A DNA stretch of 64,000 nucleotides from an uncultured Candidatus Rokubacteria bacterium (GTDB lineage Bacteria; Methylomirabilota; Methylomirabilia; Rokubacteriales; CSP1-6), in contig CAVYTA010000006.1 in the NCBI GenBank assembly GCA_963771355.1, positions 1,184,001 to 1,248,000 of the forward strand, read 5' to 3'. Each line of letters begins with the position of its first letter. Position 1 is the stretch's first letter. The notes beneath the pieces were generated by a model. The model worked only from the letters and a program-made list of their open reading frames with translations. It did not search any database and was not told the DNA's origin. The translations under genes and the position numbers were made by a program. Below are positions 25,890 to 56,955 of this stretch, piece after piece.

Positions 25890-26675
25890 ATGACGACCCC
25901 CGCGTCCTCCTCTTTCGTGAGGGATCAGAAGCCGGCGCCGCTGCCGATCTGGCGGGAGGCGCTGGCCGGGCTCGACTGGGTCTCGCTCCGGACGTCCCCC
26001 CTCTTCTACGGCTGCGGAGTGCCGCGCGGCGACGGTGCCGCGGTGGTCCTCGTCCCGGGCTTCCTCGCCAGCGACTGGTACCTCTTCGAGATCCATGCGT
26101 GGCTGGCCCGGATCGGCTACCGTCCTGAGCTCTCGCGCGTGGGCCGTAACGCGGAGTGCCTCGACGTCATCGCCGATCGCCTGTTCGTCACGATCGAATC
26201 GGCGCGGGCCGCCACCGGGCGGCCGGTGCACCTGATCGGGCATAGCCTCGGCGGGCTGCTGGCGCGCTCCGCGGCGACGCGGCGCCCCGATCTCATCGCC
26301 TCCGTGACGACGCTGGGGGCCCCGTTCCGCGGGATCCGCGGGCATCCGCTCGTGCTCTTCGCCTCCGACCGGGTTCGCGACCGCCTGAGCCGGACGCGTG
26401 AGGGCAAGCCGGACTGCTATACCGGCTACTGCGCGTGCCCGGCGGTGGGTGGACTCACGGCGCCCTTCCCCCCTTCGATCCCGCAGATGGCGGTGTATAC
26501 CCGCTCCGACGGCATCGTGGACTGGCAGTACTGCATCACCGGCGATGCCGCGACGGACTTCGAGGTGTCGGGGACTCACATCGGGCTTGTCGTCAATCCC
26601 GCCGTGTACCGGCTCATCGCGACGCATCTCGCCGCGGCAGGCCGGTCCGCTTCTTCCGCCGGGACCCGCGGCTAG
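25890..26675 (+). CDS. Lipase/esterase-type alpha/beta hydrolase
   Basis: VPGFL, GHSLGG, DGIVDW, THIGL. Confidence 0.88.
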   Translation: MTTPASSSFVRDQKPAPLPIWREALAGLDWVSLRTSPLFYGCGVPRGDGAAVVLVPGFLASDWYLFEIHAWLARIGYRPELSRVGRNAECLDVIADRLFVTIESARAATGRPVHLIGHSLGGLLARSAATRRPDLIASVTTLGAPFRGIRGHPLVLFASDRVRDRLSRTREGKPDCYTGYCACPAVGGLTAPFPPSIPQMAVYTRSDGIVDWQYCITGDAATDFEVSGTHIGLVVNPAVYRLIATHLAAAGRSASSAGTRG

Positions 26676-26686
26676 GGATCGCCCCG

Positions 26687-28147
26687 GTGGGGGCTCGCGA
26701 GCTCAATCGCCGTCTCACCTCCGTCGACGCCACCTTCCTCTACGCCGAGAAGCCGACCCAGCCCATGCACGTGGGCGGCTGCATGATCTACGAGGGGCGG
26801 CTGTCGCTGGAGGCGCTGACCGAGGTGCTGAACGCACGGCTGCACCTCCTCCCGCGCTATCGCCAGAAGGTGGTGTTCCCGCCCTTCGGGCTCGCGCATC
26901 CCACCTGGGAGGACGATCCCGACTTCGACATCCGCAATCACGCCGCCGAGATCACGTTGCCTTCGCCGGGCGACGACCGGATGCTCTCGGAGGCGGGCGG
27001 ACAGGCCTTCGCGGGGATGCTCGATCGGAACCATCCCCTCTGGAAGCTCATCGTGGTACACGGGCGCGCCGACGGGAATACCGCGGTGATCTGGAAGATC
27101 CACCACGCCATGATCGACGGGGTCTCCGGCGTGGACCTCACCATGGTGCTCCACGACCTCAAGCAGGACGCGGCGCCCCCGGAGCCGCCGGCCGCGCCCT
27201 GGCAGCCCCAGCCCGTCCCCGATCCCCTCACCCTGCTGCAGGACTCGGTACGCGACCGGCTCACCGAGGTCGCGCGGATCGCGACCGACGAGACCTTCCG
27301 GCTCCTCCGCCCCACCGAGCTCGAGGCGCGTGTCCGACAGCTCGCCAGCGCCGTCACGTCGACCGCCCCGAACGTGCTCCGCCCGGCGCCGCGGGTACCG
27401 TTCAACGGGACGATCGGGGCGGAGCGGCGTTTCGGCTGGGCGGAGTTCTCCTTCGGCGAGTTCCGGCACGTGAAGTCCGTCCTGGGCGGCACCGTCAACG
27501 ACGTGGTGCTGGCGGTGATCGCGGGGGGGCTGGGCCGCTACCTCCGCGCCCTGGGTCTCTCCACCGACGGTGTGGAGCTCCGCGCGATGTGCCCGGTGAG
27601 CATGCGCCGGCCCGATCAGCGCGGCGCCCTGGGCAATCTCGTGTCCATGATCTTCGCCCCGCTGCACGTGGGCATCCTGGACCCGGTGGCGCGGCTCACC
27701 GCCGAGCGCGAGGCAATGGAGCGGCTCAAGAACCAGGACCAGGCGGGCGGACTCTACGAGATGACGAATCTGCTGGAGCAGGTGCCGCCCGCGCTGGCCG
27801 CGGTGGCCGGGCAGCTCTCGATCCCGAACACGCTGCTCAACACCGTGTCCACGAACGTGCCCGGACCCCAGATCCCGCTCTTCCTCTCGGGCCGGCGGCT
27901 CATCGGCTGGTACCCGCTCCTGCCCCTCGCCGGCGAGGTCGGGCTTTGCAACGCGATCCTCACGTACGACCAGCGGCTCACCATCGGGGTGACCACCGAT
28001 CCGCGCCTCGTCCCCGACGTCTGGCTCTACGTCGAATGCCTGAAGGCGTCCTTCGCCGAGCTCCGCGACGCTGCCGGGCGGCGAGAAGAGTCCAGACGCG
28101 AAGCGGCGCCCGAGAGCCGCCCCCGAGACGTACCCCTGGTACGTTGA
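26687..28147 (+). CDS. Wax ester synthase / diacylglycerol acyltransferase (WS/DGAT)
   Basis: DATFLYAE..PMHVG, HHAMIDG catalytic motif, GTVNDV, GNLVS, TNVPGP. Confidence 0.95.
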   Translation: MGARELNRRLTSVDATFLYAEKPTQPMHVGGCMIYEGRLSLEALTEVLNARLHLLPRYRQKVVFPPFGLAHPTWEDDPDFDIRNHAAEITLPSPGDDRMLSEAGGQAFAGMLDRNHPLWKLIVVHGRADGNTAVIWKIHHAMIDGVSGVDLTMVLHDLKQDAAPPEPPAAPWQPQPVPDPLTLLQDSVRDRLTEVARIATDETFRLLRPTELEARVRQLASAVTSTAPNVLRPAPRVPFNGTIGAERRFGWAEFSFGEFRHVKSVLGGTVNDVVLAVIAGGLGRYLRALGLSTDGVELRAMCPVSMRRPDQRGALGNLVSMIFAPLHVGILDPVARLTAEREAMERLKNQDQAGGLYEMTNLLEQVPPALAAVAGQLSIPNTLLNTVSTNVPGPQIPLFLSGRRLIGWYPLLPLAGEVGLCNAILTYDQRLTIGVTTDPRLVPDVWLYVECLKASFAELRDAAGRREESRREAAPESRPRDVPLVR

Positions 28148-28199
28148 GGGAGTGGCCGAGGGCGCGAACGACGCAGCTGGGCCCTTCTCGGCGGCCGGC
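28073..28199. repeat. ~125 bp palindromic MITE/REP-like element, copy 1
   Basis: Imperfect terminal IRs CCGGGCGGCGAGAAGAGTCCAG / CTGGGCCCTTCTCGGCGGCCGG; core CGTACCCCTGGTACGTTGAG identical to the copy at 43535. Confidence 0.85.
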
Positions 28200-28621
28200 T
28201 AGCGGGCGTAAATTTCGCGCATCCGGTTCACGTACGTGTTGCCGGCCCCCTCGAGCTCCTTCGCCGTCTTCTCCGCGGAAGCCTGGAAGCGCTCGGCATT
28301 GCGCGCGACGATCTGGGCATTGGTCTCGACGAGCTTGGTCGCCCGCTGGGTCCCATCAGCCACTGCCTGGAGGCCCTTGCGGTACCAGGCGAGCGGATCG
28401 CGCCGGAGCTCATCGAGCACGTCGCCCTGGGGAAGGCCCGGCAGGGTGATCTCGCGGGCGGCCTCGAGGGCCGCCGCCTGCAGCTCGAGGTAGGTCTTCA
28501 TGCCCTCGCGGGCCGCCGAAGACCCGAGCTCCACGAGCTCGCCGATCACCCGCTCATTGGCCTGGGCATAGGCCGACACGGCGTCCAGAACCTTGTCCTT
28601 CACGGTGGTGGGGGTCTGCAT
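28199..28621 (-). CDS. Phasin-like protein 1
   Basis: Helical and Ala-rich; paralogue of 50116-50565 (ELVELGSSAAREG..YLELQ, DPLAW/F). Confidence 0.7.
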   Translation of the reverse strand: MQTPTTVKDKVLDAVSAYAQANERVIGELVELGSSAAREGMKTYLELQAAALEAAREITLPGLPQGDVLDELRRDPLAWYRKGLQAVADGTQRATKLVETNAQIVARNAERFQASAEKTAKELEGAGNTYVNRMREIYAR

Positions 28622-28693: not shown

Positions 28694-28721
28694 AAACTAA
28701 CACAGCGCGTTATACTGTCAA
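28694..28721 (-). promoter_or_regulatory. sigma70 promoter with overlapping palindromic operator
   Basis: TTGACA-16-TAGTTT on the minus strand; TAACAC-AGC-GCGTTA at 28698-28712. Confidence 0.7.
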
Positions 28722-28790
28722 GCAGAATTTAACGCAGAGAGTCATTTACGCTATAGTGCTGATAATGCGCCATATAATTGAGGTCACGCC

Positions 28791-30060
28791 GTGAGCTCCC
28801 CCGCCCCACGCCAGCGTCGGATTGCTCTCATCGTCCTCCTGGCGGCGGTCTTCCTGGCCATCACGTCCTTCCCCTTCCGCGCCTCCTGGTGGGGTGGCTG
28901 GATCCTCGCGATCGCCGAGGCGGGCATCGTGGGCGGGCTCGCCGACTGGTTCGCCGTCACCGCGATCTTCCGCCGCCCGCTCGGACTCCCCATTCCCCAC
29001 ACCGCGCTGATCCCGGCCAACTGGGAGCTGATGGCGGAACGCGTCGGCACCATGGTCGGCGACCGCGTGCTCACCAAGGACTACGTCGCGCGCGAGGTGG
29101 CGCGCTTCGACATCGCCGATCTCCTCGCGCGTGCCGCCGACCGCGTGAAGCCCGAGGATCTCGAGGCCGTGCTGCGCGCGGCCGCGCGCTGGGCGGCGGA
29201 TCAGCTCACGCCCGAAGCCACCGCGGACATCGTGGCCTGGCTGCGCGGACTCCTCCTCGGCCGTCCCCTGGCTCCCCTCCTGGCGCGGGCCATCGAGATC
29301 GCGCAGCGCCAGGGCTGGGACCAGCGCGCGATCGAGGCGCTCGCCGGCGCCCTCGGCGACGCGCTGGATCGCCCCGACTTCCGCGCTGCGGTGGGCGAGT
29401 TGGTGGACGAAGTGCTCGCCGGCTATCGCGAGAAGATGGGCACCTACCCGCGGCTCCTGATCGGGCTGGCCAACGTCTTCGGTCTGATCAACCGGGACCG
29501 GCTCGTCGGCGTCCTCCACGGCGCCATCCGGAAGGTGGCCGCCGACCCCGCCGACCCGATGCGGCGGCGCCTCGTCGAGGTGATCGGTGCCCTCCCAGAG
29601 CGCCTGCGCCGCGATGCCGACCTGGCCGCGCGCGTGGAGACCGCGAAGACGGAGCTGCTCGCGAGCGCGGAGGTGACCCGGCTCATCGAGGACGCGACCG
29701 AGGGCCTCCGGCGCGCGCTCGTCTCGGACCTCGCGAGCGAGCGGTCCGAGACGGTGGCCTGGATCACCGCCCGTCTCGACGGGCTCCGCCGGCAGCTGTC
29801 CACGGACCCGGCCCTCCGCGCAGGCTCTCGACCGGTGGATCAAGACGCGCATCATCGGCCTGATCGAGCGCTACCACGACCGCATCGCGCGCTTCATCGA
29901 GCGGGGCGTCCACGCGCTGGGGCCCGAGGGCGCGGTGCGCCTCATCGAGGAGCACGCGGGGGACGATCTCCAGTACATCCGCGTCAACGGCACCGTGGTC
30001 GGCGGGCTCGCCGGCGGCGCCCTCTACGCGATCCACCTGCTGCTGCGCCTGCTGCTGTAA
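28791..30060 (+). CDS. DUF445 family membrane protein, +1 frameshift near 29820
   Basis: EAGIVGGLADWFAVTAIFRRPLGLPIPHTA at the N-terminus. The C-terminal DLQYIRVNGTVVGG is in another frame, restored by removing one G at ~29820. Confidence 0.88.
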
Positions 30061-30063: not shown

Positions 30064-30121
30064 GGCTGCCACACCTTTCGCCACTCCTTCGGCCACCCAC
30101 CCGCTCGAGGACGGCGCCGAG
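30064..30121 (+). pseudogene. intI: Integron-integrase (tyrosine recombinase) remnant
   Basis: Translates GCHTFRHSF[+1]ATHPLEDGAE, versus IntI box II CHTFRHSFATHLLEDG. Confidence 0.7.
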
Positions 30122-30296
30122 ACTCCTGTGACCCGCCATGCCGACCCCGCCCCCGCAGTCTCCGCCGCGCTACACAGGTCTGCGTATCCCCTCCCGCGCC
30201 CACCCCACCCCATGGCGAACTATGCGCCACCTAGGCTATTCTTGCGACGCAAGGAGGCCACCGGCCATGCTACGCAGCCTTCCCGCGCTACCACCT

Positions 30297-30331
30297 CCGC
30301 GCTACACAGAACTAGATAATTCTAGTTATGC
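30297..30331 (+). other. attI-like recombination site
   Basis: AACTAG-ATAATT-CTAGTT palindrome ending in core GTTATGC (30325-30331), the exact complement of the first attC R'' (GCATAAC). Confidence 0.7.
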
Positions 30332-30365
30332 GGACAGAGGAGGGCGCGAGCCCGAGAGGAGCCAT

Positions 30366-30743
30366 ATGCCTGACGCGCGTAAGCCGGGCGACGTTCATCC
30401 GTTGTTCGTGGCTGCCTTCAACGCAGGCGATCTCGACGCTCTCATGCAGTGCTTTGAGCCTGAGGCCTGCTTCGTATCCAAGTCGGGCCGTATCGCGGCC
30501 GGAGCCGACGCAGTCCGTGAGGCATATCGGCGAACACTCGCGAACAAGCCTCACATGGAGTTGGAGGTACGAAAGGTCTTGCCCGCGGGCCCCGGTCTGG
30601 CGTTGGTCATCGTCCCGTTCACGCAGAAGGCCGTCACGGGGGACGGACCGACGGAATGGCGCAGTGTAGCGACCGACATCGTTCGGCAGCAGCCCGATGG
30701 CAGTTGGCGGCTGGTTTTGGACAATCCGTTCGGTATCGAATGA
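30366..30743 (+). CDS. SnoaL/DUF4440 NTF2-like protein (cassette 1)
   Basis: FVAAFNAGDLDAL...ATDIVRQQPDGSWRLVLDNP; GAGGAG RBS. Confidence 0.88.
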   Translation: MPDARKPGDVHPLFVAAFNAGDLDALMQCFEPEACFVSKSGRIAAGADAVREAYRRTLANKPHMELEVRKVLPAGPGLALVIVPFTQKAVTGDGPTEWRSVATDIVRQQPDGSWRLVLDNPFGIE

Positions 30744-30749
30744 ACGACC

Positions 30750-30837
30750 GCATAACACACGGCTGGAACGGACCGCCGTCAAGCGCCGTTTTGACCTCCG
30801 AGCGTGGTGCCGGCGGCCGCTCAGGCGAGCGTTCGGC
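30750..30837 (+). other. attC site 1
   Basis: GCATAAC-5-GCTGGAAC...GCTCAGG...GTTCGGC with internal palindrome. Confidence 0.85.
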
Positions 30838-30906
30838 GTTTGACAGGTAGCGCTTGCGAGTCGACAGAGCCGTGAGACCCGACTGGCCGCTTCAACGGAG
30901 AACTGC

Positions 30907-31899
30907 ATGCTGAAGACACGTCTCACGGACCTGCTGGGCCTTCGCTATCCTGTCATTTCGGCACCGATGGCGCGCATGAGCGGCGGCCGTCTGGCGGCGG
31001 CGGTCTCCGCGGCCGGCGGCCTCGGGACCTTCGGCGGCGTGGCTCTCGCAACCCCCACCGGACCGGAATACGTCCGTGAGCAGATCGCCACGATTCGGGC
31101 CCAGACGGATCGTCCGTTCGGCGTCGGTTTCATCACGCATTGGTTGTCGCGCGCACCCGAGAATTTCGAGGTCGTCCTGGAGGAGCGAGTACCGGTCGTA
31201 CTCTTCTCTTTCGCCGATCCCCGGCCGTGGATCGGTCGCGCGAGGGATGCGGGGGCCATTACCATCTGTCAGGTTCAGACGATCGACGGCGCCCGAACCG
31301 CCGTCTCGGCAGGCGCTCACGTCCTCGTCGCGCAGGGCAACGAATCCGGCGGCCACACTGGCGCCCTGCACCTGTTGCCGTTCCTCGTCCGCGTCATCGA
31401 GATGTTTCCCGAGTTACCGGTGGTCGCCGCCGGCGGGATCGCAAACGGCCGCTCGCTGGCCGCGGTCCTCGCCGCCGGCGCCGAAGGTGCCTGGGTTGGA
31501 ACGGCTTTCGTAGCAACGCCGGAGAACGAACTCCCCGAGGCCTACAAGGCACGCGTCGTCCAGCATCGGGGAGATGAGTCCGTCTACACCGAAGTGATGG
31601 ATATCGTCCTCACACGGATGCGCGGGTCGCCGGCCTGGCCGACTGGCATCGCCGCGCGCGTCCACAATAACGCTTTCATTCGCACATGGCACGGCCGCGA
31701 AGACGAGTTACGTGCCCAGCTCGACGAGGTCATCCCGATGTACGCCGAGGCCGCGAAGCGCGGAGACCAGGATGTCGTCCCCGTGTTGTTCGGGCGATCC
31801 GCCGATTTCGTCCACGCCGTGCGGCCTGCGGCCGACGTCCTCACCGAGATGTGCGCCGCCGCCGAGCGCCACCTACGCGGGCGCTGGAACGCCGATTGA
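30907..31899 (+). CDS. Nitronate monooxygenase / FabK-like flavoprotein (cassette 2)
   Basis: PVISAPM, QGNESGGH, AAGGIANG, VGTAF. Confidence 0.9.
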   Translation: MLKTRLTDLLGLRYPVISAPMARMSGGRLAAAVSAAGGLGTFGGVALATPTGPEYVREQIATIRAQTDRPFGVGFITHWLSRAPENFEVVLEERVPVVLFSFADPRPWIGRARDAGAITICQVQTIDGARTAVSAGAHVLVAQGNESGGHTGALHLLPFLVRVIEMFPELPVVAAGGIANGRSLAAVLAAGAEGAWVGTAFVATPENELPEAYKARVVQHRGDESVYTEVMDIVLTRMRGSPAWPTGIAARVHNNAFIRTWHGREDELRAQLDEVIPMYAEAAKRGDQDVVPVLFGRSADFVHAVRPAADVLTEMCAAAERHLRGRWNAD

Positions 31900-31914
31900 A
31901 GGTGGCCGAGTATC

Positions 31915-31984
31915 GCCGAACAACGCGCAGCACCCGACCGGGGCTCGCGTTGCTCGCTCCGGCGGGTGAGCGCCGGCGTTACAG
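31915..31984 (+). other. attC site 2
   Basis: GCCGAAC-5-GCAGCACC...GGTGAGC-6-GTTACAG. Confidence 0.82.
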
Positions 31985-32026
31985 ACCGGTGATGGGGGCT
32001 TCGATGATGACGCGTGAGGAACAGCT

Positions 32027-32464
32027 ATGAGACGGCTGCTCAGAGCGATCACGGTCGTCACGGCCATCTTCCTTCTCGTCGTGCCGGCCGCCACTCACGC
32101 GCAGCAACCAGCAATGCCGGTGATCGGTTTCCTCGGCACCTCGACGGCCGCGGCTTGGGCAGGTTACGTGGCCGGGTTCCGTCAGGGGCTCAGCGAGGCT
32201 GGCTATGTCGACGGCCGCAACGTCACGATCGAATTCCGCTGGGCGGAGGACCGATCCGATCGATTGTCGCCGCTCGCGGCTGATTTGGTCGGCCGTCAGG
32301 TGACCGTGATCGTCACAAGCGCTGGAACGGCTCTGGCACTCGCGGCGAAGGCCGCGACTCCGACTATCCCCGTCGTTTTCGTGATGGGGGCCGACCCCGT
32401 CAAGTTCGGTCTCGTCGCCAGTCTCGGTCGTCCGGGAGGGAACCTCACGGGGGTGTCAAGCTGA
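32027..32464 (+). pseudogene. Truncated ABC substrate-binding protein (ABC_sub_bind family)
   Basis: [12 protein letters not shown]...[16 protein letters not shown]...[21 protein letters not shown] then stops; only the N-terminal half is present. Confidence 0.8.
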
Positions 32465-32519
32465 GGCGGAGGCGGAGGGCATCGTTGCTCGTCTACCCCA
32501 TCGGCGGCACTCTTACGTA

Positions 32520-33068
<549 letters not shown>

Positions 33069-33100
33069 CTATCGGGCCTCAGACGGCTCCGAGCGCCGCC

Positions 33101-33135
33101 GCCTAACCCGCCGCTGAACCGCAGTATCGTTAGCC
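33101..33135 (+). other. attC site 3, internally deleted (35 bp)
   Basis: GCCTAAC-CCGCCGCTGAACCGCAGTATC-GTTAGCC; both R boxes retained, central stem missing. Confidence 0.7.
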
Positions 33136-33623
33136 GCTATGATGTGTGACCGATCGGTGCGAGCATGCGCGGGCGCGCCCTGGAAGGCGCGCATGTGTCA
33201 GAACGAGGGAGGTTCCAGGGCTGGCGATGACGGTTAAGACACTGCGCCCCCAATCGCGAGTGGCGCGATCACGGACAGTGAGCGTGAAGTTCGGTCGGCG
33301 CCACGAGGCCGGACGCGCGCTTCGTCATACTGTCGACTCACGCTGCGCGGAGCTAATCGTGCAGGGTGTGCCACGATCGGACACGGCGAGTGCTAAGTGA
33401 CAACGCATCACGCTGGGGCCCGGTAGCGGCCATCGCCGCGATCAGCATGAACAGCAATTGAAGGAGCTCGCGACCCTCGGCATCAAGCGGGTCGGGCTCA
33501 TGATCTGCGAGACGCTTTTGCTTGGCACTGCTGGTCCTCGCGCTCCTGCGCTGGGGCGGCTGAAGGCGCAAGGCACCGCCCCAGATCGCTGCCTGTGAGT
33601 GCGCTCTCTTCAAAGGATAAGGC

Positions 33624-44924: not shown

Positions 44925-44926
44925 CG

Positions 44927-47497: not shown

Positions 47498-49009
47498 TCA
47501 CACCTGTGTGCGGAGCTCTTTGCGCAGGACCTTCCCGATCGGGCTCTTGGGAAGGGCCTCCACGAAGCGCACCTGCTTGGGGCACTTGTAGCGGGCCAGC
47601 CGGGTCTGGCAGAAGGCCATGACCTCGTCGGCGGTGGCGTTCTGGCCGTCGCGGAGCACCACGAAGGCGAGGACGTCCTCGCCCATGAGGGGATCCGGCA
47701 TCCCGATCACCGCGGCCTCCGCCGTCTTCGGAAACGCGTAGAGGGTCTCCTCCACCTCGCGGGGGTAGATGTTGAAGCCGCCGCGGATGATGAGATCCTT
47801 CTTCCGCTCGACGATGTAGAGGAAGCCGTCCCCGTCCAGGCGCCCCATGTCGCCGGTGTGGAGCCAGCCGCCCCGCACCGTGCGCGCCGTCTCGTCGGGA
47901 TCGCGGTAGTAGCCGAGCATCACGTTCGGGCCCTTCACGCACACCTCGCCCACCTCGCCCGGGGGCAGCGGCCGGTCGGCGTCGTCCTGGATGGTGACCG
48001 ACACCCCCGGGATGGGCTGGCCCACCGAGCCCAGCTTGCGCACCCCGGACAGCCGATGCGCCGATACCACCGGCGCGGCCTCGGTGAGCCCATAGCCCTC
48101 CATCATCTTGCCGCCGAACTTCCGCTCGAAGGGCTCGACCACCTCCACCGGGAGCGGCGCCGCCCCCGAGCCCCAGACCCGCATCGACGAGGTGTCGAAG
48201 CGGTCCGCCTCGGGATAGTTGAGGAGGTAGAGGAACATGGTGGGAACGCCCGACATCGCGCTGGCCCGGAATTTCTGGATGGTCTCCAGCACCGCCTCCG
48301 GGTTGAACCAGCGCAGCAGCACCGCGCGGGTGCCGAGGATGCTTCCCGCGTTCATGAGGGTGAGCCCGTACGAATGCGACAGCGGCAGCACTGCCACCGC
48401 CCACTCGCGCCGGTCCAGCTCGTAGAGCTCGGCGGCGGCGCGGGCGTTGGCGGCGAGGTTCGCGTGGGACAGCGCCACCCCCTTCGGCCTCCCCGTGGTG
48501 CCGGAGGTGTAGAGGATCACTGCGACCTCGTCGTCCTCGCGGTCGATGGTCTCGAAGCGCTCGTGCTCCCCCGCCGTCTCCGCGGCGAAGGACCGGGTGC
48601 GGCCGTCGGGGTCACCCTCGCCGTCCACCACCAGCACGTGGCGGAGCGTGGGGAGCACTCCGATCTGGTCCTCGACCTTCCACACCATGTCGGGGGACGT
48701 GATCACCACCTTGGCCTCGGAGTGGGCGAGGATATGCGCCACCTCGGCGGATCCCAGAAGGAAGATCACCGGCACGATCACCGCGCCCGCCTTGAGAATG
48801 CCGCCGTAGCTCTGGGTGACCTCGGGGCAGTTCGGGAGCATCACCGCCACCCGGTCGCCCGGCTCCACGCCCAGGCGCCGGAGGGCGTTGGCGAGACGGC
48901 GCGACGCGCGATCGGCTTCGACATTGGTGATCTCGCGCCCCTCGAAGGACAGCGACACGAACTCGCCGTACTTGCCGAGGCTGTCCTCCCCGAGCCGGGC
49001 CAGGTTCAT
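47498..49009 (-). CDS. Long-chain fatty acid-CoA ligase
   Basis: YTSGTTGRPKG, EGYGLTE, GWLHTGD, LPKSPIGK. Confidence 0.93.
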   Translation of the reverse strand: MNLARLGEDSLGKYGEFVSLSFEGREITNVEADRASRRLANALRRLGVEPGDRVAVMLPNCPEVTQSYGGILKAGAVIVPVIFLLGSAEVAHILAHSEAKVVITSPDMVWKVEDQIGVLPTLRHVLVVDGEGDPDGRTRSFAAETAGEHERFETIDREDDEVAVILYTSGTTGRPKGVALSHANLAANARAAAELYELDRREWAVAVLPLSHSYGLTLMNAGSILGTRAVLLRWFNPEAVLETIQKFRASAMSGVPTMFLYLLNYPEADRFDTSSMRVWGSGAAPLPVEVVEPFERKFGGKMMEGYGLTEAAPVVSAHRLSGVRKLGSVGQPIPGVSVTIQDDADRPLPPGEVGEVCVKGPNVMLGYYRDPDETARTVRGGWLHTGDMGRLDGDGFLYIVERKKDLIIRGGFNIYPREVEETLYAFPKTAEAAVIGMPDPLMGEDVLAFVVLRDGQNATADEVMAFCQTRLARYKCPKQVRFVEALPKSPIGKVLRKELRTQV

Positions 49010-49348: not shown

Positions 49349-50037
49349 GAGCAGTCCTCCTTGATCGCCTCGAGCCGCGCGATGGGGCTCGGGTGCGTCG
49401 AAAGCCAGTTGAAGTATTCGGGCCGCCGGCTCTCCCGCGCCAGGCGCCGGAGCAGCGCGGCGAGCGCGCGACAGCGGGTGCCGTCGCCCGGCAGCCGGTT
49501 CAGCAGCTCCACCGCGTAGCGGTCCGCTGCGCGCTCCTCGTCGCGGTCATAGGCGCGGAACTTGGCCAGCTCGGCGGGCTGGCGCGAGAGCATGGGCCCC
49601 GCGCCGCGCTCCTCCTGCCGGCGGGCCCGGCGCGCCACCGCGTGCTCCAGCTCCACATGTCCCAGCTCGTGCGCGAGCGCGGCGCGCAGCTCCTCAGGGG
49701 GAAGCTGCGCCAGCGCGCCTTCGGTCACGAGGAGGCTGAAGCGGCATGACGGGTGCGGCGCCACGCCGAGGTTGATGTGCTTCATCGGCAGGATCCCGAG
49801 GCCCACCGCGCAGCCGTCTTCCGGGCCCCGCCATACCCCGGAGGCGCGCAGGAGCGGGGCCAGGGCCGCCGAGATACGGAACCGGTCGTCCTCCGTCGGC
49901 GCCCGGGGTTGTACTGCCGGGCGGACGGGCGGCTTCTGCTTCTGCTGAGGGGCCTGGGAGGCACAGCCGGCCAGGAACGCCAGGGCGAGGAGAGCAATGG
50001 CTCCCAAAGGCCGACACCTTGACGCAATATAGCGCAT
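49345..50037 (-). CDS. M48 family metallopeptidase lipoprotein (start uncertain)
   Basis: LAGC lipobox, LAHELGH, EERAAD, STHP. Confidence 0.85.
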   Translation of the reverse strand: MRYIASRCRPLGAIALLALAFLAGCASQAPQQKQKPPVRPAVQPRAPTEDDRFRISAALAPLLRASGVWRGPEDGCAVGLGILPMKHINLGVAPHPSCRFSLLVTEGALAQLPPEELRAALAHELGHVELEHAVARRARRQEERGAGPMLSRQPAELAKFRAYDRDEERAADRYAVELLNRLPGDGTRCRALAALLRRLARESRRPEYFNWLSTHPSPIARLEAIKEDCS

Positions 50038-50048
50038 TGCGTTATCAT
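50019..50048 (+). promoter_or_regulatory. sigma70 promoter with overlapping palindromic operator
   Basis: TTGACG-18-TATCAT; TAGCGC-ATT-GCGTTA at 50030-50044; also ACGCAAT-7-ATTGCGT. Confidence 0.7.
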
Positions 50049-50115: not shown

Positions 50116-50565
50116 ATGACGATGGCCACCCCAGGAACTGACCTCTTCGCCCAGATGACCGGCACCGCCGTGGAGATGTTCACCCTCTACGCCGACATGA
50201 ACCAGAAGGTTCTCCGCGAGCTGGTCGACCTCTCCGCCAGCGCCGCCAAGGAAGGCGTCCGCCTTTACGCGGAGCTCCAGTCCTCGGCGGTCGAGGCGGT
50301 GAAGGATGGCCAGGCCTATGCCCTCCGACGCCAGACCGACTTGCAGGACCCGCCGACGGACCCGCTCGCCTTCTGCCAGCGCGGCATGCTGGATTCGACG
50401 GAGGGCGCGCAGCGAGCCTTCAAGCTCTTCGAGGACAATGCCCAGGCGGTGACGCGGTCGGCCGAGCGGCTCCAGGTCAGCGCCGATCAGGCCGGCAAGG
50501 AGATCCAGGCCACCTTGGCCCACCTCTCGGATCGGGTGAAGTCGCTCTACGCACCCCTCGCCTAG
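50116..50565 (+). CDS. Phasin-like protein 2
   Basis: GGAGG RBS; helical; adjacent to phaR; paralogue of 28199-28621. Confidence 0.72.
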   Translation: MTMATPGTDLFAQMTGTAVEMFTLYADMNQKVLRELVDLSASAAKEGVRLYAELQSSAVEAVKDGQAYALRRQTDLQDPPTDPLAFCQRGMLDSTEGAQRAFKLFEDNAQAVTRSAERLQVSADQAGKEIQATLAHLSDRVKSLYAPLA

Positions 50566-50609: not shown

Positions 50610-51116
50610 TCACTTCTCGCGTCGCTTCTCCAGCCGCTCCTCCAGCGCGCGCAGCTGCTCGCGGAGCGCCGCCACCTCGTCCCGCAGCGCCTCCGCCTCG
50701 CCCGCTCCCTCAGCCTTGCGCTCGGACGCCCCCGCCGGCGGCGCGGCCTTCGGGGCCGTCGCCCAGCCCGCGCGCGACGCCCATTCGCGGAACACGCGGT
50801 CGGCCTCGCGCTGGCTGGTCATGATGGCGTCGAGACTCGACTTCATCGTGCCCTGCACGAAGTCCTGCCAGGCCTGGCCGTGCTTGATGAGCTGGTGGAG
50901 GAAGGCGGTGGGGAGCGCGGCGCGGTGGTTGCGCTCGTTCTCGAGAATGATCTGGGCCAGCGTCACCGAGGTGAGATCCTCGCCGGTGGACACGTCCACC
51001 ACCGAGATCTCCTTGCCGGCGCGGATCAGCTCCTCGAGCTCCTCCAGCGTGACGTAACGGCTCTCCTGCGTGTCGTAAAGCTTACGGTTGGAGTACCGTT
51101 TGATCACGTACGCCAT
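50610..51116 (-). CDS. phaR: PHA synthesis regulator with PHB_acc_N DNA-binding domain
   Basis: IKRYSNRKLYDTQESRYVTL...TGEDLT..TLAQII. Confidence 0.92.
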   Translation of the reverse strand: MAYVIKRYSNRKLYDTQESRYVTLEELEELIRAGKEISVVDVSTGEDLTSVTLAQIILENERNHRAALPTAFLHQLIKHGQAWQDFVQGTMKSSLDAIMTSQREADRVFREWASRAGWATAPKAAPPAGASERKAEGAGEAEALRDEVAALREQLRALEERLEKRREK

Positions 51117-51214: not shown

Positions 51215-51958
51215 ATGTTGCTCGAAGGACGCACCGCGCTCGTCACCGGAGGCTCCCGCGGCATCGGACGCGCCATCGCGCTCGCGCTCGCCGAGGAGGG
51301 CGCCGACGTCGCCATCAACTACGTCTCCAGCGAGGCCACCGCCCGCAGCGTGGCGGACCAGGTCCAGAAGCTGGGTCGCCGAGTCATGCTCGCCCAGGCC
51401 GACGTGGCCGATTACCCCGACACCTATCGGATGGCGCAGGACGTGCTGAAGGAGTTCGGGCACGTCGACATCCTCGTCAACAACGCCGGCATCACGTCGG
51501 ACAAGAGCTTCGTGAAGATGGACCACGCCTCCTGGCGCCGGGTGCTGGCCATCAATCTCGACGGGGTCTTCAACTGCACCAAGGTGTTCATCGACCAGAT
51601 GCTCAAGCAGAGCTTCGGCCGGGTGGTGAACATCACCTCGGTCATCGGTCAGATCGGCAACTTCGGGCAGGCCAACTACGCCGCCTCCAAGGCGGGCGTG
51701 GCCGCGTTCACCAAGTCCCTGGCCAAGGAGCTGGCGGGCAAGGGCATCACCGTGAACTGCGTGGCGCCGGGCTTCACCGAGACCGACATGGTCACCGCCA
51801 TTCCGGAGAAGGTGCGCGCCAAGCTGCTGGAGCAGATTCCCATGCGGCGCTTCGGGAAGGCGGAGGAGGTGGCACGCGCCTGCGTCTACCTCTGCTCCAA
51901 GGACGGCGACTACGTGACGGGGGCGGAGCTCTCCATCAACGGGGGGCTGTTCATGTAG
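51215..51958 (+). CDS. phaB: Acetoacetyl-CoA / 3-oxoacyl reductase
   Basis: TGGSRGIG, GNFGQANYAASK, INGGLFM; located in the pha cluster. Confidence 0.85.
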   Translation: MLLEGRTALVTGGSRGIGRAIALALAEEGADVAINYVSSEATARSVADQVQKLGRRVMLAQADVADYPDTYRMAQDVLKEFGHVDILVNNAGITSDKSFVKMDHASWRRVLAINLDGVFNCTKVFIDQMLKQSFGRVVNITSVIGQIGNFGQANYAASKAGVAAFTKSLAKELAGKGITVNCVAPGFTETDMVTAIPEKVRAKLLEQIPMRRFGKAEEVARACVYLCSKDGDYVTGAELSINGGLFM

Positions 51959-52005
51959 GGCGAGCCGAAGAGCACCCTGTGCTCTGAGGCGAGCAATACG
52001 AAAAT
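51959..52005 (+). repeat. Short REP-like element
   Basis: GGCGAGCCGAAG...GAGGCGAGCAATACGAAAAT; homologous to 55479-55519 on the minus strand. Confidence 0.6.
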
Positions 52006-52613
52006 CAAGGGCGTCGCCTCACCGCCGCGGCACCGATAGCAGGATCCCCTTGAAGGCGCCGAGGCGCCGCAAGCGCGAGCGCGCTGAGGCTCAGCATCCC
52101 CATCATGGCCGCGCCCTGGGCCGCCCACGCCCACGGGCTCAGCGCCCAGAGCGTCAACAGCGCGGCGGGATCCGCCACCCGCTCGTAGCGCACGGGGGTG
52201 CGCGACGGCATCACCAGGGCCTCGCCGCCGAGCACTTCCTCGCCGCGCTGATTCACACACACGGTCCGGAGCCGAACTCGATTCTTCTCCAAGATGATCT
52301 CGGTCACCTCCACCCGCGCGGTGACGGTGTCGCCCAGCTTCACCGGCCGGAGGAACTTCAGGTCCTGCGAGAGGTAGATGGTACCGGGGCCCGGCAGGCG
52401 CGTGCCGATCACCGCCGACACCAGGCCGGCCGTCCAGATCCCCGGCGCGATTCGCTCCTTGAAGAGCGTGCCGGCGGCGTAGGCCGGATCGGAGTGGATG
52501 GGGTTGTAGTCCCCCACGGAGTCCACGAAGCCCGCGATGTCTCCGTCGGTGGCCACGCGCGTCACCTCCGCGCGGTCGCCCACCTCGATGCGGTCGATGG
52601 TGACTCCGATCAT
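52005..52613 (-). CDS. phaJ: MaoC-family (R)-specific enoyl-CoA hydratase with C-terminal extension
   Basis: GDYNPIHSD, LPGPGTIYLSQDLKFLRPV; ATGA overlap with phaE. Confidence 0.85.
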   Translation of the reverse strand: MIGVTIDRIEVGDRAEVTRVATDGDIAGFVDSVGDYNPIHSDPAYAAGTLFKERIAPGIWTAGLVSAVIGTRLPGPGTIYLSQDLKFLRPVKLGDTVTARVEVTEIILEKNRVRLRTVCVNQRGEEVLGGEALVMPSRTPVRYERVADPAALLTLWALSPWAWAAQGAAMMGMLSLSALALAAPRRLQGDPAIGAAAVRRRP

Positions 52614-53143: not shown

Positions 53144-54247
53144 CTACGACCTGGCCGCCAGCCAGGACGCGACCTTGGGCCAGCAGTGCACCGAGGCGCC
53201 GCGTCCCGCGATGAGGGAGATGTGCCCGCCCGGCAGCTCCACGTACTCGCGGTCGGCGCTGGAGACGGCGGTGATGAGCGGCTTCACGCAGGCGGGCGGC
53301 GCGATATTGTCTTCCTTGGCGCCCACCGCGAGCACGGGGGCGTGGATGTTCCGCAGGCTCACCGGACGGCCTCCCATGCGCAGCTCGCCCCGGACGAGCC
53401 GGTTCTGCTGGTAGAAGTCCTTCACCCACTGGCGGAAGAACTCGCCGGGAAACGGGAGGTACTCGTTGGCCCACTTGTTGAGCGCATTGAATCCCGAGAC
53501 GTACTCGGGATTCCACAAGTTCCACCAGAGATTGATGTTGGTGGAGAGATCCATGGTCGGCTTGAGGAGCTTGAAGCCGGCCTTCACCATGTCGGCGGGA
53601 ATGCTGCCCATGGTGTCCACGTACTTGTCCACGTCGAAGTAACGCGCGTCGAGCCACTGGGCGAAGAGTCCCGCGTGGGCGAAGTCGATGGGCCCCGCCA
53701 TGTCCACGAAGTTCTTCAGCGGGAACTCGGGTGTGGAGCCCAGGAAGCTCGCCGAGATGGGCGCGCCCATGCAGTACCCCAGCACGGAGATCTCGCGCGC
53801 GCCCGAGGACTCCAGCGCCTTGCGCGCCATCCGAGGCAGGATCTTGGTCACGACGTCCTCGAAGGTGAGGCCGTTGTCCTCCGGCCCGAACACGCCCCAG
53901 TCCACCAGGTACATGTCGAACCCCTGCTGCGTCATGTGCTCCATGAACGAGCCCCGGCGCATGAGGTCGAAGATGTAGGGCCGGCTGATGCCGAGGTTGG
54001 GGACGAACAGCACCGGGGTCCGGTGCGTCCGCTTGGACTCGTACCGGTACAGGCGCGACTTGTTCTTCCGGTAGATCTCCTGGCGCGGCGTGGGTCCGAG
54101 CTCGGGCTCCTTGGGATTCATGACCATCTCGGAGAAGTGCTTCATGCGGAGGAAGTTCCGATTGACCTCCTCCTGCCAGCGCGCCCGCACCTCGGGGGAC
54201 ACCCCGGGCATCTCGGGCACCACCATGGTGAACAGTTCGTCCTTCAT
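53144..54247 (-). CDS. phaC: Class III/IV-type PHA synthase
   Basis: 367 aa; GPTP, RPYIFDL, LVDWG, GYCMG catalytic Cys, DNIAPP Asp, GGHIS His. Confidence 0.93.
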   Translation of the reverse strand: MKDELFTMVVPEMPGVSPEVRARWQEEVNRNFLRMKHFSEMVMNPKEPELGPTPRQEIYRKNKSRLYRYESKRTHRTPVLFVPNLGISRPYIFDLMRRGSFMEHMTQQGFDMYLVDWGVFGPEDNGLTFEDVVTKILPRMARKALESSGAREISVLGYCMGAPISASFLGSTPEFPLKNFVDMAGPIDFAHAGLFAQWLDARYFDVDKYVDTMGSIPADMVKAGFKLLKPTMDLSTNINLWWNLWNPEYVSGFNALNKWANEYLPFPGEFFRQWVKDFYQQNRLVRGELRMGGRPVSLRNIHAPVLAVGAKEDNIAPPACVKPLITAVSSADREYVELPGGHISLIAGRGASVHCWPKVASWLAARS

Positions 54248-54350: not shown

Positions 54351-54671
54351 CTAGACAGAAAAGAGGGACCCGACCTTCATGGCGAGGCCCATGTCCCCCT
54401 TCAGCTTGAGCTTGCCCGACATGAAGGCCATCTGGCCGGAGAGCTTGCCGCCGATCATGTCGAGCCAGTCCTGGGACGACATGCTGAGCGTGAGGTTCGG
54501 CGCCGCCGCCGCCCCCTCGTTCACCGCGCAGGTCCCGTCCTTGATCACGGCATGCCAGGTGCCGCCCTGGTCGCCGGTGATGTCGTACTGGATGGTGGAG
54601 TTGACCCCGGTCGCCTTGCTGGGCTGAAACCGGCTCGCCATTGCGTCGAAGGTTTCCTTCACTGTGGGCAT
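54351..54671 (-). CDS. SCP2 sterol/lipid-binding domain protein
   Basis: AFMSGKLKLKGDMGLAMK. Confidence 0.92.
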   Translation of the reverse strand: MPTVKETFDAMASRFQPSKATGVNSTIQYDITGDQGGTWHAVIKDGTCAVNEGAAAAPNLTLSMSSQDWLDMIGGKLSGQMAFMSGKLKLKGDMGLAMKVGSLFSV

Positions 54672-54704: not shown

Positions 54705-55454
54705 TTAGAACGTGAACAGGTCCATTCCGCCCGTCACCGTGAGAATGGCGCCGGTGATGTAGCGGGCGCGCTCGGAGCACAGGAAGGCGATGGCATTGGC
54801 CACGTCCTCCGGCTGCCCTTCCGTCTGCATCGCGACGCGCTTGACCATCCGCTCGTACAGCGGCGAGAGGTTGGCGTTGGGGCCGATGATGCCGGGGGCG
54901 ATCACATTGCTCGTGATGTGATAGCGCGCGCCTTCGAGCGCGACCGACTTGGCGAAGCCGATCACGCCCATCTTGCTCGTCGAGTAGGCGGTCTGCCCGA
55001 AGCCCCCCATGAGGCCCGCGATCGAGGCCATGGAGATCACGCGGCCCCAGCTCCGCTCACGCATGCCCGGGAACACTGCCTTGGTGACATTGTACGTGCC
55101 GGTGAGATTCACCTGGAGGTTGAGGTCCCAGGCCGCGTCGTCCATGTCCTTGAGCTGGCCCAGCGTGTAGATGAGGCCGGCGTTGTTGACGCAGATGTCC
55201 ACCGGGCCCACGTCGGCCTGCGCGCGGCGGAGGACCTCGGCGAGGCCCGGACGGTCGGTGATGTCCACCTCGTAGCCGCGCGCGACCCCGCCGCCGCCGG
55301 CGATCTCCTTGGCCGTTTCCGCGGCCCCCTCGCCGTTGAGGTCGAGGACGATGACCCGGCAGCCCTCTGCGGCGAGGGTGAGGCAGTCCTGGCGGCCCAG
55401 GCTCCGGGCTCCCCCCGTGACCAGCGCCACCTTGTCCTTCAGGCCGAGATCCAT
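54705..55454 (-). CDS. SDR oxidoreductase (FabG-like)
   Basis: TGGARSLG, NNAG, GQTAYSTSK. Confidence 0.9.
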   Translation of the reverse strand: MDLGLKDKVALVTGGARSLGRQDCLTLAAEGCRVIVLDLNGEGAAETAKEIAGGGGVARGYEVDITDRPGLAEVLRRAQADVGPVDICVNNAGLIYTLGQLKDMDDAAWDLNLQVNLTGTYNVTKAVFPGMRERSWGRVISMASIAGLMGGFGQTAYSTSKMGVIGFAKSVALEGARYHITSNVIAPGIIGPNANLSPLYERMVKRVAMQTEGQPEDVANAIAFLCSERARYITGAILTVTGGMDLFTF

Positions 55455-55519: not shown

Positions 55520-56293
55520 CTACTTTCCCTTGAACTCTGGCGCACGCTTCTGGAAGAAGGCCTGCAGCCCCTCGCCCGCGTCCTCCGTACGGATGACCTT
55601 CTCGAAGGCGCGGATCTCGATCTCGATACCCTTGTCGATGGGCTCCTCGAGCCCGTCGTCCACCGCCTCGATGATGAGCCGGGTGGCGATGGGCGGCCGC
55701 TTGCCCAGCTCGCGCGCGAGCCCCTTGGCGTCGTTGAGCGTCTCGCCGTCCTTGGCCACGCGGTTGACGAGCCCGATCCGGTGGCACTCCGCCGCGGAGA
55801 TCTGGGTGCCCAGGATGAGGTGCTCGAGGGCCAGCCCGCGCCCGATGAGACGGGGCGTGCGCTGCGTGCCGCCGTAGCCGGGAATGATGCCGAGGTTGGA
55901 CTCCGTCTGCCCCATGCGCGCCGTCTCCTTGAGGATCCGGATGTGGCAGCCCATGGCGATCTCACACCCGCCGCCCAGCGCGTGCCCGTTGATGGCGGCC
56001 ACCACCGGCTTGGGGAAGCGCTCGATGCGCCGCACCACGCTGTTGCCAAACCGGAGAAAGGCCGCGATGTCCGGGCCCGAGAAGGCGGAGCCGAGGTCGG
56101 CCCCCGCGCAGAAAATCTTGTCGCCCGCCCCGGTGATGATCAGCGATCGCACGGCGTCGTCGGCCTGGAGCTCGGAGAGCGCGGCATTGAGCTCGCGCAT
56201 CAGGTCTTCGCTGATGGCGTTGGCGGGGGGCCGGTTCAGGGTGATGACCGCGAAGGATTCCTCGCGCGTGACGACGATGTTCTCGTACGGCAT
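55520..56293 (-). CDS. Enoyl-CoA hydratase (crotonase)
   Basis: FCAGAD, GGGCE, ESNLGIIPGYGGTQR. Confidence 0.93.
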   Translation of the reverse strand: MPYENIVVTREESFAVITLNRPPANAISEDLMRELNAALSELQADDAVRSLIITGAGDKIFCAGADLGSAFSGPDIAAFLRFGNSVVRRIERFPKPVVAAINGHALGGGCEIAMGCHIRILKETARMGQTESNLGIIPGYGGTQRTPRLIGRGLALEHLILGTQISAAECHRIGLVNRVAKDGETLNDAKGLARELGKRPPIATRLIIEAVDDGLEEPIDKGIEIEIRAFEKVIRTEDAGEGLQAFFQKRAPEFKGK

Positions 56294-56321
56294 CGGTGGA
56301 TGGCTCCTTGACGCGCGCGGC

Positions 56322-56903
56322 TCAGCGGGGGGCGAGGCCGCGGAGGAAAAGGTCGGCGAGGGCCTCCGCGGTGTCGGCGAGGCGATAGCCGCGCTTGCCC
56401 AGCACCCACGAGGTGGCCATCTGGTCCATGGCGCCGAAGAGGGCCTTGGTGGCGACCTTCACCGGCAGGCCCTTCCGGAAGCGACCCTCCGCCACGCCCT
56501 CTTCCAGGACGGAGGTGATGAGGGCGAAGTAGGACGCGATCTCGTGCGCCGAGGCCCCCCGGAAGAACTTCTGTCCCTGCCGCTGCTCCACCTGGACCAC
56601 CTCGGCCAGCTGCGGGTCTTCCTCCAGCATCTCGAAATGGAGACGGATGAGCCGGGAAAGCTTCGCCACCGCGTCCGGCTCGTCGGCGATCGCCTTGCGC
56701 AGGCTCCCCACGAACTGCGCCATCTTGTCGCGGAAGAGAGTGACGAGGATGTCGTCCTTGGTGCGGAAGTAGAGATAGATGGTCCCCGCAGCAATGCCGG
56801 CTTCCCTGGCAATGTCGGAGACGCGCGAGTTGTAGTAGCCCTTGCGGGCGAAGACCCGGACGGCCGCCTCGATAATCTGTTGGGGCTTCTCAGGATCGCG
56901 CAT
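56322..56903 (-). CDS. TetR-family regulator, FadR(YsiA)-like
   Basis: IIEAAVRVFARKGY...IAREAGIAAGTIYLYF; heads fatty-acid genes. Confidence 0.9.
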   Translation of the reverse strand: MRDPEKPQQIIEAAVRVFARKGYYNSRVSDIAREAGIAAGTIYLYFRTKDDILVTLFRDKMAQFVGSLRKAIADEPDAVAKLSRLIRLHFEMLEEDPQLAEVVQVEQRQGQKFFRGASAHEIASYFALITSVLEEGVAEGRFRKGLPVKVATKALFGAMDQMATSWVLGKRGYRLADTAEALADLFLRGLAPR

Positions 56904-56908
56904 GGGGG

Positions 56909-56955
56909 ATGACTGAACCGCCATTCATCTTAGTCAGGCCACCCGGTCCTGTCAA
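56909..56955 (-). promoter_or_regulatory. sigma70 promoter and FadR-type operator
   Basis: TTGACA-17-TAAGAT followed by ATGAATG-GCGGTT-CAGTCAT (56909-56928). Confidence 0.8.

Follow-up and report, generated by a model that had tools for sequence, protein, structure and literature searches.

This study examined the storage-lipid genes in a 64,000-nucleotide stretch of DNA (the window; G000:C6:1184001-1248000, with all feature coordinates counted from its start) that belongs to a 5.5-Mb, 99.8% complete genome, G000. The span of interest, from 25,890 to 56,955, consists of three layers: a class III-type polyhydroxyalkanoate (PHA) locus found throughout the order, an add-on block built around a wax ester synthase/diacylglycerol acyltransferase (WS/DGAT), and approximately 8 kb made up of an unrelated insert and an IS3 element. 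The block, which comprises lipase-WS/DGAT, a phasin paralogue, DUF445, CYP102 and a GNAT acetyltransferase, is an optional neighbour of the PHA locus in a few genera. It is held with moderate confidence that both would draw on a common acyl-CoA pool, from which PhaCE would make short-chain PHA and WS/DGAT would make triacylglycerol. What the sequences show directly is which genes are present, that their catalytic motifs are intact, how the genes are distributed and ordered among genomes, the operator-like palindromes and the pattern of joint gene loss; the locus is real and conserved at the level of the genus, and it is not one regulon. The closest relatives of its PhaC (60-97%) are from metagenome-assembled genomes (MAGs) whose titles mostly name Ca. 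Rokubacteria or Methylomirabilota, followed by Vicinamibacteria, and the organism is treated here as a presumptive member of Rokubacteriales. Every close relative being a MAG, the uncultured lineage suspected in an initial annotation of the window is supported.

The PHA layer is widespread. Among 145 genomes of the order with a completeness of at least 80%, on which the distribution counts are based (G-numbers denote genomes, L-numbers loci and g-numbers genera), phaC scored in 127 and a phaB orthologue was present in 103 (18 candidates scored in each genome), while G000 carries a single phaC, a single phaE and a single phaR. The gene order of the core recurs across the order with small changes (fadR-crotonase-SDR2-SCP2-phaC-phaE-phaJ-(phaB)-phaR-phasin2-FadD-SDR1-ADH), and 64 phaC loci, many of them incomplete at their ends, contained phaE (61), phaJ (54), phaR (44), SCP2 (38) and FadD1 (37). 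The PhaC protein (367 aa, ~40 kDa) has a G-x-C-x-G box, and its C159, D313 and H342 match Cupriavidus necator PhaC in alignment; class III is its best family (281 bits to TIGR01836, compared to 109 for class I and 40 for class II). PhaE (173 aa) scored 30.2 against a cut-off of 25.7 for PF09712, phaR was identified by PF07879, phaB reached 303 against a cut-off of 302 for TIGR01829, and the FadR-type TetR regulator reached 202 bits against 200 for NF053878. Two variants of the layer were observed elsewhere. Many Rokubacteriales, though not G000, have two family III CoA-transferase genes that separate SCP2 from phaC (L077:6986-9888, L103:4721-5881 and L106:10840-13778), and G049 (genus g29) contains a second phasin-phaC-phaE unit (L124:6614-8418) whose synthase is 65% identical to PhaC and not of the phaC2 type described below.

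The WS/DGAT itself is identified by TIGR02946 (403 bits, cut-off 310), by both Pfam domains and by PDB entries 6chj and 7nxg (both at E 4e-41), and it is single-copy in G000. A WS/DGAT score was obtained in 18 of the 145 genomes, of which 15 have a full-length gene of this subfamily (G000, five other g1 genomes, eight g34 genomes and G148), one has a fragment (G102) and two have genes of other subfamilies. Fourteen of these 15 genomes also scored for phaC, and a full-length copy of this WS/DGAT is missing from 112-113 of the 127 genomes with phaC (G102 having only the fragment); the WS/DGAT side is dispensable, and PHA synthesis does not depend on WS/DGAT, CYP102 and GNAT. WS/DGAT shares the phaC contig in eight of the 15 genomes, at a distance of 14-25 kb, and in six more it is on a contig too short to include phaC, yet with the same set of flanking genes, so that the clustering initially proposed is conserved across related MAGs.

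The position of the block differs among lineages. In g1 and g34 it lies between SDR1 and ADH. In G010 (genus g4; 79% complete and hence outside the 145-genome set) the block genes are elsewhere, between phaC and SCP2, and occur together with phasin1, an additional GNAT and another phaE-phaC pair (41% to PhaC), an arrangement also found in L197, L202, L204 and L206. Of 80 metagenome WS/DGAT loci, 31 were less than 75% identical, and these 31 included a phaC-type gene in seven and GNAT in 19; when only divergent loci of at least 6 kb are counted, a class III-type phaC lies beside WS/DGAT in 7 of 17. In L217 (59% GC), whose cluster members are labelled Deltaproteobacteria, the order is phaC-orf138-SDR-WS/DGAT-GNAT-lipases with a weak Phasin_2 match, while in L207 (labelled Dehalococcoidia) WS/DGAT is tail-to-tail with phaC and is followed by a PlsC-type acyltransferase and GNAT. 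The linkage of WS/DGAT and phaC exceeds chance, even though kin among the loci are not independent, because more than one gene order shows it and so do three lineages with different labels. We infer that the block was acquired as an island that brought its own phaE2-phaC2-GNAT2-phasin1, a state that G010, G116 and four metagenome loci still show, and that the second synthase was subsequently lost in g1 and g34. A further open reading frame (ORF), orf186 (L094:4809-5366 in G010), has no Pfam or NCBIfam match; it immediately precedes WS/DGAT in loci of the G010 type and is also found in G116.

The PHA locus and the add-on block each include a putative phasin. The two proteins are 37% identical to one another and neither matches a family over cut-off; of 43 aligned members, 8 gave weak Phasin_2 matches with E values no higher than 1 (best 0.0019). 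The AF2 phasin model is a hairpin (pLDDT 83) that aligned with phasin 5ip0 at Z 9.7 and an rmsd of 5.3 over 103 residues, ranked sixth among generic hairpins, and Foldseek with this model returned no match at E 0.001. The hydrophobic moment of phasin1 and phasin2 alike exceeds that of all 300 shuffles. Both proteins are called phasins here, a naming for which the predicted PhaR operators are the best support, beside the amphipathic hairpin and the weak family and fold matches. In a tree of 40 phasins (midpoint root), phasin1 forms one clade (100/98) with two branches, one beside phaE2-phaC2 and one beside WS/DGAT. A phasin of C. necator is reportedly able to bind triacylglycerol inclusions in Rhodococcus. 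All of the enzymes named in the initial annotation were found in place; its two phasins have the family status just described, and the 'PhaE-like' ORF at 40649-41065 (orf138) is not a second PhaE. This ORF has no Pfam or NCBIfam match, gave hhalign probabilities of 0.9% and 0.3% against PhaE and is present without phaC in G148; the one lead towards PhaE is a weak one from a language model (0.92, with recognition below threshold). Profile comparisons of orf138 with phasins were likewise negative, and its AF2 model (pLDDT 69) matched generic hairpins only.

Predicted operators provide a partial connection between the PHA locus and the block. By eye, both window phasin promoters contain a 17-bp palindrome beside TTGAC. 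A PhaR-type matrix was trained on 30 sites upstream of phasin2, with a seed pattern from both window promoters, so that it is not fully blind; the phasin1 set consisted of 57 of 68 genes after removal of 11 canonical copies of family f4, and the operator sets include close kin. A palindrome of at least 12 bits was present upstream of 56 of the 57 phasin1 genes, with two sites in 51 (shuffles <1%), and upstream of 10 of 53 phaC genes, where the median was 9.6 compared to -4.8 for shuffled sequence. The core of the palindrome agrees with the Sinorhizobium meliloti motif YGCRNYGCR, reported in the available text of PMC12542648 with two copies around -35 in phaP promoters, and with the C. necator motif in the portion of PMC12849132 at hand. 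No PhaR-type site was found in 33 regions before fadR, which has its own palindrome after the -10 element in 29 of 33 loci; the other upstream regions of the cluster do not show this pattern. Two more places in G000 carry strong copies of it, namely C6:2004791, ahead of an acyl-CoA dehydrogenase-like pair (named by N-terminal sequence), and C6:1341277, at an ORF downstream of a FadD homologue.

A functional tie within the block is indicated by joint gene loss. CYP102 is present in 15 of the 145 genomes, namely 14 WS/DGAT genomes and G116, and GNAT in all 15 WS/DGAT genomes, with homologues without WS/DGAT in three more (G116, G013 and G079); no other gene accompanies this WS/DGAT subfamily as constantly as GNAT. 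In g34, eight genomes have WS/DGAT, CYP102 and GNAT together, and in the other ten none of the three is intact although DUF445 and the esterase are kept, DUF445 lying between the jointly lost genes and yet being retained. Differing remnants of the lost genes are found in G097, G100 and G102, and in g1 the same three genes have been lost from G002. Since positive and negative genomes are interleaved in trees of flanking genes, DUF445 and the pha core genes, WS/DGAT, CYP102 and GNAT appear to have been lost jointly at least five separate times, a count made by eye on FastTree trees in which several nodes are weak, four genomes were dropped from the core tree for lack of sequence and G096 is represented by only 170 residues in part of the analysis. 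The spread of a single reduced allele by recombination is not favoured, as the DUF445 tree agrees with the core tree and the junctions are not the same. The pattern supports a shared function of the three genes, short of proving a substrate relation, and it supports the initial annotation in linking CYP102 to the storage genes, here to WS/DGAT.

In G003, CYP102 is one 1079-aa ORF that matches CYP102A1 at E 0 across residues 10-1077, and the motifs FGNGQRACIG and AGHETT were identified. In the window its reading frame is broken into three frames by two one-base insertions (~38484-38488 and 39074, compared to G003 and G005), of which the extra base at 39074 is contradicted by a short-read contig of run X5 that does not have it, and DUF445 is one base longer than in two relatives, at position 29819. 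The two frameshifts in CYP102 are probably assembly errors, and the three isolated +1 differences favour long-read error over gene decay. An RNA run, X15, yielded low-depth contigs over CYP102, GNAT and the esterase without a silent control, and these are therefore no sign of expression. A role of GNAT as a Pat-type protein acetylase was considered and set aside, its best PDB matches being generic GNATs (E 1e-8). FadD2 contains a PKSPIGK motif, which we take to be of the acetylation-site kind.

CYP102 enzymes hydroxylate fatty acids at sub-terminal positions and WS/DGAT enzymes accept a broad range of acceptors. The repeated joint loss around a retained DUF445, together with the failure to find a known fatty-alcohol reductase although the genome is 99.8% complete, would also fit a scheme in which CYP102 is the source of the alcohol, hydroxylating near the methyl end, with WS/DGAT esterifying the hydroxyls to give estolide-type storage esters and GNAT as a dedicated partner. 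This is regarded as improbable: G148 and 26 of the 31 divergent loci (many of them short) have WS/DGAT but no CYP102, G116 has CYP102 without WS/DGAT, the Dehalococcoidia-labelled locus has PlsC in the place of CYP102, and the literature search turned up no paper on such a route. The extended version, in which P450-made hydroxy-fatty-acid esters are stored in bodies coated by a dedicated phasin whose synthesis PhaR switches, so that PhaR divides carbon between the two stores, is given a similarly low likelihood.

With regard to the product of the WS/DGAT side, none of the fatty-alcohol reductases FarA/AcrB (full-length), FcrA/HMGR or AAR was found in G000. The best PF07993 score was 52 bits, from partial matches, NF005539, PF00368 and TIGR04058 gave nothing over cut-off, and among the many SDRs in the genome none could be distinguished as Acr1. 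Because a known fatty-alcohol reductase was not found, triacylglycerol appears likelier than wax ester, and the wax ester storage of the initial annotation is not sustained. It could still be that wax ester is made through an unrecognised reductase, with an Acr1-like SDR and the neighbouring zinc alcohol dehydrogenase (ADH) supplying fatty alcohol. A candidate, SDR3, separates orf138 from CYP102 in other genomes of g1, and in L184 and L217 it is the gene just ahead of WS/DGAT; it scores 169 bits to the C-terminal part of PRK07201, and ADH is divergent from the lipase. However, SDR3 is absent from G000, where a contig of run X9 spans the spot gap-free, and from g34 loci, ADH is order-wide and also present in genomes without WS/DGAT, and 169 bits is far under the cut-off of 549 and usual for SDRs. 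This route is considered very improbable.

The PHA side raises the question of where its monomers come from. The best PDB match of PhaJ is an (R)-specific enoyl-CoA hydratase (5cpg, E 3e-35; 1iq6 at E 4e-24), and the protein has a MaoC fold with a D-x4-H dyad (DYNPIH). A conserved, hydrophobic C-terminal extension of ~50 residues past the MaoC domain (52005-52200) was also observed. In genus g34 (G096-G113), 16 of 18 genomes have phaC and one of 18 a phaB orthologue, and phaR follows directly after phaJ. This makes PhaJ a plausible monomer route and favours it as the probable monomer source there, although a FabG-type SDR could substitute for PhaB. The feeding of PHA by PhaJ had been presented as established, a status that it does not have here: the Haloferax mediterranei PhaJ1, encoded in a phaJ1-phaRPEC cluster, acts in degradation according to the available part of PMC9049629. 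The g34 phaC-phaE-phaJ-phaR-phasin loci, mostly phaB-free, are a natural test case for PhaB-independent PHA synthesis.

The window has no phaA thiolase, as initially reported, and this says little, since three full thiolases are on other contigs of G000. The one on contig C5 is BktB-like and occurs in a run with a 3-hydroxybutyryl-CoA dehydrogenase (hbd) and an acyl-CoA dehydrogenase. Control of this distant run by PhaR was considered from a 13.7-bit site there and rejected, as the 24 genome matches of at least 12 bits fall within the 8-176 obtained with permuted matrices. In L055:5498-9755 (Vicinamibacterales), the genes ahead of a related phaC (61%) encode a KAS III-like protein of 652 aa, PhaB and a PhaE-N-like product, an arrangement that might provide acetoacetyl-CoA without a thiolase.

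Several findings weigh against the reading of two stores fed from one pool. The PhaC score is under the TIGR01836 cut-off of 365 and PhaE is under that of TIGR01834 (34/155 bits; 32/148 for class IV PhaR TIGR02132), and because these curated cut-offs were missed the two proteins are filed as class III-type and not as class III members. Profile searches found no PhaZ, poly-3-hydroxybutyrate (PHB) esterase or 3-hydroxybutyrate dehydrogenase over cut-off, so PhaJ may serve breakdown. The five PF01553 (PlsC-type) acyltransferase and five PAP2 matches over cut-off in G000 are candidates for the acyltransferase and phosphatidate phosphatase of a triacylglycerol (Kennedy) pathway, but they are generic and do not demonstrate a supply of diacylglycerol. 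PhaR-type sites were found before none of 56 lipase-WS/DGAT, 37 GNAT, 40 CYP102 and 14 orf138 regions, and a FadR-type site was likewise absent before lipase-WS/DGAT (0/56), GNAT, CYP102 and orf138. With predicted PhaR sites at the phasins and phaC and none at WS/DGAT, CYP102 or GNAT, regulatory linkage is partial and would reach the coat gene only: of the linked regulation first proposed, a predicted PhaR-type operator at the WS/DGAT-side phasin stands and a single regulon does not. Ten of the 17 divergent loci of at least 6 kb have no phaC (long examples being L188 and L193), in G148 WS/DGAT-GNAT-orf138 and phaC are on different contigs at least ~100 kb apart, and G116 carries the block minus WS/DGAT at a distance from its main phaC. 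Additionally, phasin1 groups with the phasin of the second PHA synthase and may therefore coat PHA rather than oil, and G002 and G097 retain phasin1 without WS/DGAT.

Many of these observations would follow if there were no coupling at all, that is, if a mobile lipid island with a second phaEC had landed near the pha genes, leaving phasin1 as a left-over PHA phasin and WS/DGAT independent of PHA. The phasin1 phylogeny that joins phaE2-phaC2, the absence of PhaR or FadR sites upstream of WS/DGAT and the unlinked genes of G148 and G116 are all in its favour, as are the acceptance of unrelated DNA at the site (the 6.6-kb insert and IS3) and the lack of the block in most Rokubacteriales. This explanation is nevertheless judged unlikely, although it is to be taken seriously. 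After the loss of phaC2, phasin1 directly adjoins WS/DGAT in 48 of 49 metagenome loci of the g1/g34 type and keeps its operators, it has disappeared from 8 of the 10 genomes of g34 in which WS/DGAT is not intact, and the proximity of WS/DGAT and phaC is repeated in differently labelled lineages and gene orders.

Under the preferred reading of a shared acyl-CoA pool, the esterase and lipase would free fatty acids and FadD1 and FadD2 would activate them. Either beta-oxidation or a thiolase-Hbd-crotonase sequence would yield enoyl-CoA, and PhaJ (from enoyl-CoA) or PhaB (from acetoacetyl-CoA) would supply (R)-3-hydroxyacyl-CoA to PhaCE, while WS/DGAT would combine long acyl-CoA with a diacylglycerol acceptor and the lipase would mobilise its product. 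PhaR is expected to repress phasin2, phasin1 and, more weakly, phaC until titrated by granules, in which case the WS/DGAT-side coat protein would track PHA status with WS/DGAT itself outside PhaR and FadR control. CYP102 and GNAT may serve the same long-chain fatty-acid traffic, through disposal or hydroxylation of free fatty acids and through acetylation control respectively, which would explain their joint loss with WS/DGAT.

The features of the span are listed in Table 1. The stretch from 30.1 to 36.75 kb (~6.6 kb) is a real, recent and unrelated insert, with a GC content of 65.6% compared to ~70.6% on either side. Both it and the 1.27-kb IS3 are absent from G001, G004 and G006, where phaC and WS/DGAT are ~16 kb apart; part of the insert was found in L200, a metagenome locus that is 97% identical, and contigs from runs X5 and X9 read straight through the site without IS3 (~43601-44874). 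A short repeat follows WS/DGAT (28086-28195) and has 13 copies of at least 50 nt in the genome, and IS3 sits inside another of these copies (43547-43609 / ~44875-44925). Two neighbours of the span were also noted. Immediately upstream of fadR is a tandem pair of double-PilZ proteins (57003-58300), of which many relatives have a single copy, and the SDR1-ADH run ends in a conserved DUF1800 gene followed by a Tat-signal-like ORF (20164-23179).

Table 1. Features of the storage-lipid span, in window coordinates.
Feature	Position	Strand	Source
Lipase-type alpha/beta hydrolase, GHSLGG; likely first gene of lipase-WS/DGAT pair	25890..26675	+	ORF list, family scan
WS/DGAT acyltransferase; HHAMIDG motif intact, H139	26687..28147	+	
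phasin1 (phasin paralogue; convergent with WS/DGAT; amphipathic helical hairpin)	28199..28621	-	
Two PhaR-type palindromes, 17.3 and 13.0 bits, either side of phasin1-strand TTGACA (28716-28721)	28697..28745		
DUF445 membrane protein	28791..30060	+	
Unrelated lineage-specific insert: SnoaL, nitronate monooxygenase (NMO), two ABC-binding proteins (ABC_sub_bind), RibD_C, SulP; outside the system	30100..36750		
Conserved hypothetical, signal-peptide-like start; in loci seen, genus g1 only	36820..37347	+	
CYP102, P450-reductase fusion; frameshifted here, intact in relatives	37344..40585	-	
orf138, conserved amphipathic three-helix protein, no known family ('PhaE-like' ORF of the initial annotation)	40649..41065	-	
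GNAT acetyltransferase	41084..41662	-	
Carboxylesterase (COesterase; GESAG)	41776..43500	+	
IS3-type insertion sequence, single copy	43601..44874	+	
SDR1	44927..45688	-	
FadD1, long-chain acyl-CoA ligase, FadD11/15-like	45694..47487	-	
FadD2, acyl-CoA ligase; PRK06187 over cut-off	47498..49009	-	
PhaR-type palindrome; top-scoring site of the genome, 25.3 bits; member of matrix training set	50029..50045		
phasin2, order-wide phasin adjoining phaR	50116..50565	+	
phaR, PHB_acc_N DNA-binding domain	50610..51116	-	
phaB, acetoacetyl-CoA reductase	51215..51958	+	
phaJ, MaoC-fold (R)-enoyl-CoA hydratase, DYNPIH	52005..52613	-	
Short phaE, 173 aa	52610..53131	-	
phaC, class III/IV size; Cys159-Asp313-His342	53144..54247	-	
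PhaR-type palindrome overlapping predicted phaC -35, 11.6 bits	54278..54294		
SCP2 lipid-binding protein	54351..54671	-	
SDR2	54705..55454	-	
Crotonase	55520..56293	-	
FadR-type TetR regulator; likelier start is the second ATG	56322..56903	-	
Conserved palindrome immediately after predicted fadR -10; likely FadR's own operator	56913..56928		

Every enzyme family in the span is known and no new one is shown, and class III PhaC in Rokubacteria has already been published, with 15 Ca. Rokubacteria genomes counted in the available portion of PMC8312272. Compared to the H. mediterranei phaJ1-phaR-phaP-phaE-phaC locus, as described in the accessible text of PMC9049629, the PHA layer is similar in its ~40-kDa Cys-Asp-His PhaC, short second subunit, clustered PhaJ, phasin and PhaR, and thiolase elsewhere. 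It differs in that PhaR is of the bacterial PHB_acc_N type, the phasins have no Pfam family, phaB is optional, FadD ligases, a fadR-crotonase-SDR-SCP2 run and a WS/DGAT block are attached, and PhaC and PhaE are under curated cut-offs. The predicted circuit resembles the PhaR (AniA)-phasin circuits of S. meliloti (PMC12542648) and C. necator (PMC12849132), as far as the available sections describe them, in its YGCR-N-YGCR core palindrome with AT-rich arms, two copies around the phasin -35 and a weak site at phaR/phaB. Here, however, the core is mostly CGCR-N-YGCG, a regulated phasin gene is tail-to-tail with WS/DGAT, and a site lies over the phaC promoter. Rhodococcus jostii RHA1 also has PHA synthase, WS/DGAT (HHxxxDG) and lipases in one cell, but the available text of PMC2667194 gives three phaC-phaZ loci and 14 atf genes and describes no joint cluster, whereas here a single phaC and a single WS/DGAT are neighbours. 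The FarA, AcrB, Acr1+FALDR and FcrA wax-ester routes, in the sections of PMC11948995 at hand, likewise have WS/DGAT as the final step, and differ in the reductases (full-length FarA/AcrB, FcrA and AAR) not found here. CYP102A1 (P450 BM3) is a heme-FMN-FAD fusion like the one encoded intact in G003; the CYP102 of the window differs in lying within a storage-lipid block and in the two one-base insertions that interrupt it in this assembly.

In the literature searched, which included few subscription papers, no description was found of a joint PHA-WS/DGAT locus, a PhaR-type operator on a WS/DGAT-side phasin, a genus with mostly phaB-free phaC-phaE-phaJ loci, or the repeated joint loss of WS/DGAT, CYP102 and GNAT. 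If the less probable estolide scheme with PhaR were true, one granule sensor would apportion carbon to two kinds of store in a soil lineage that is abundant and uncultured. If the preferred reading is true, the locus would offer a compact, expressible system for studying the split of acyl-CoA between PHA and oil, as well as a way to ask whether phasins coat oil bodies in Gram-negative bacteria. It would also predict a PhaR operator and a new phasin family for Rokubacteria, and would indicate an uncharacterised GNAT as a partner of WS/DGAT.

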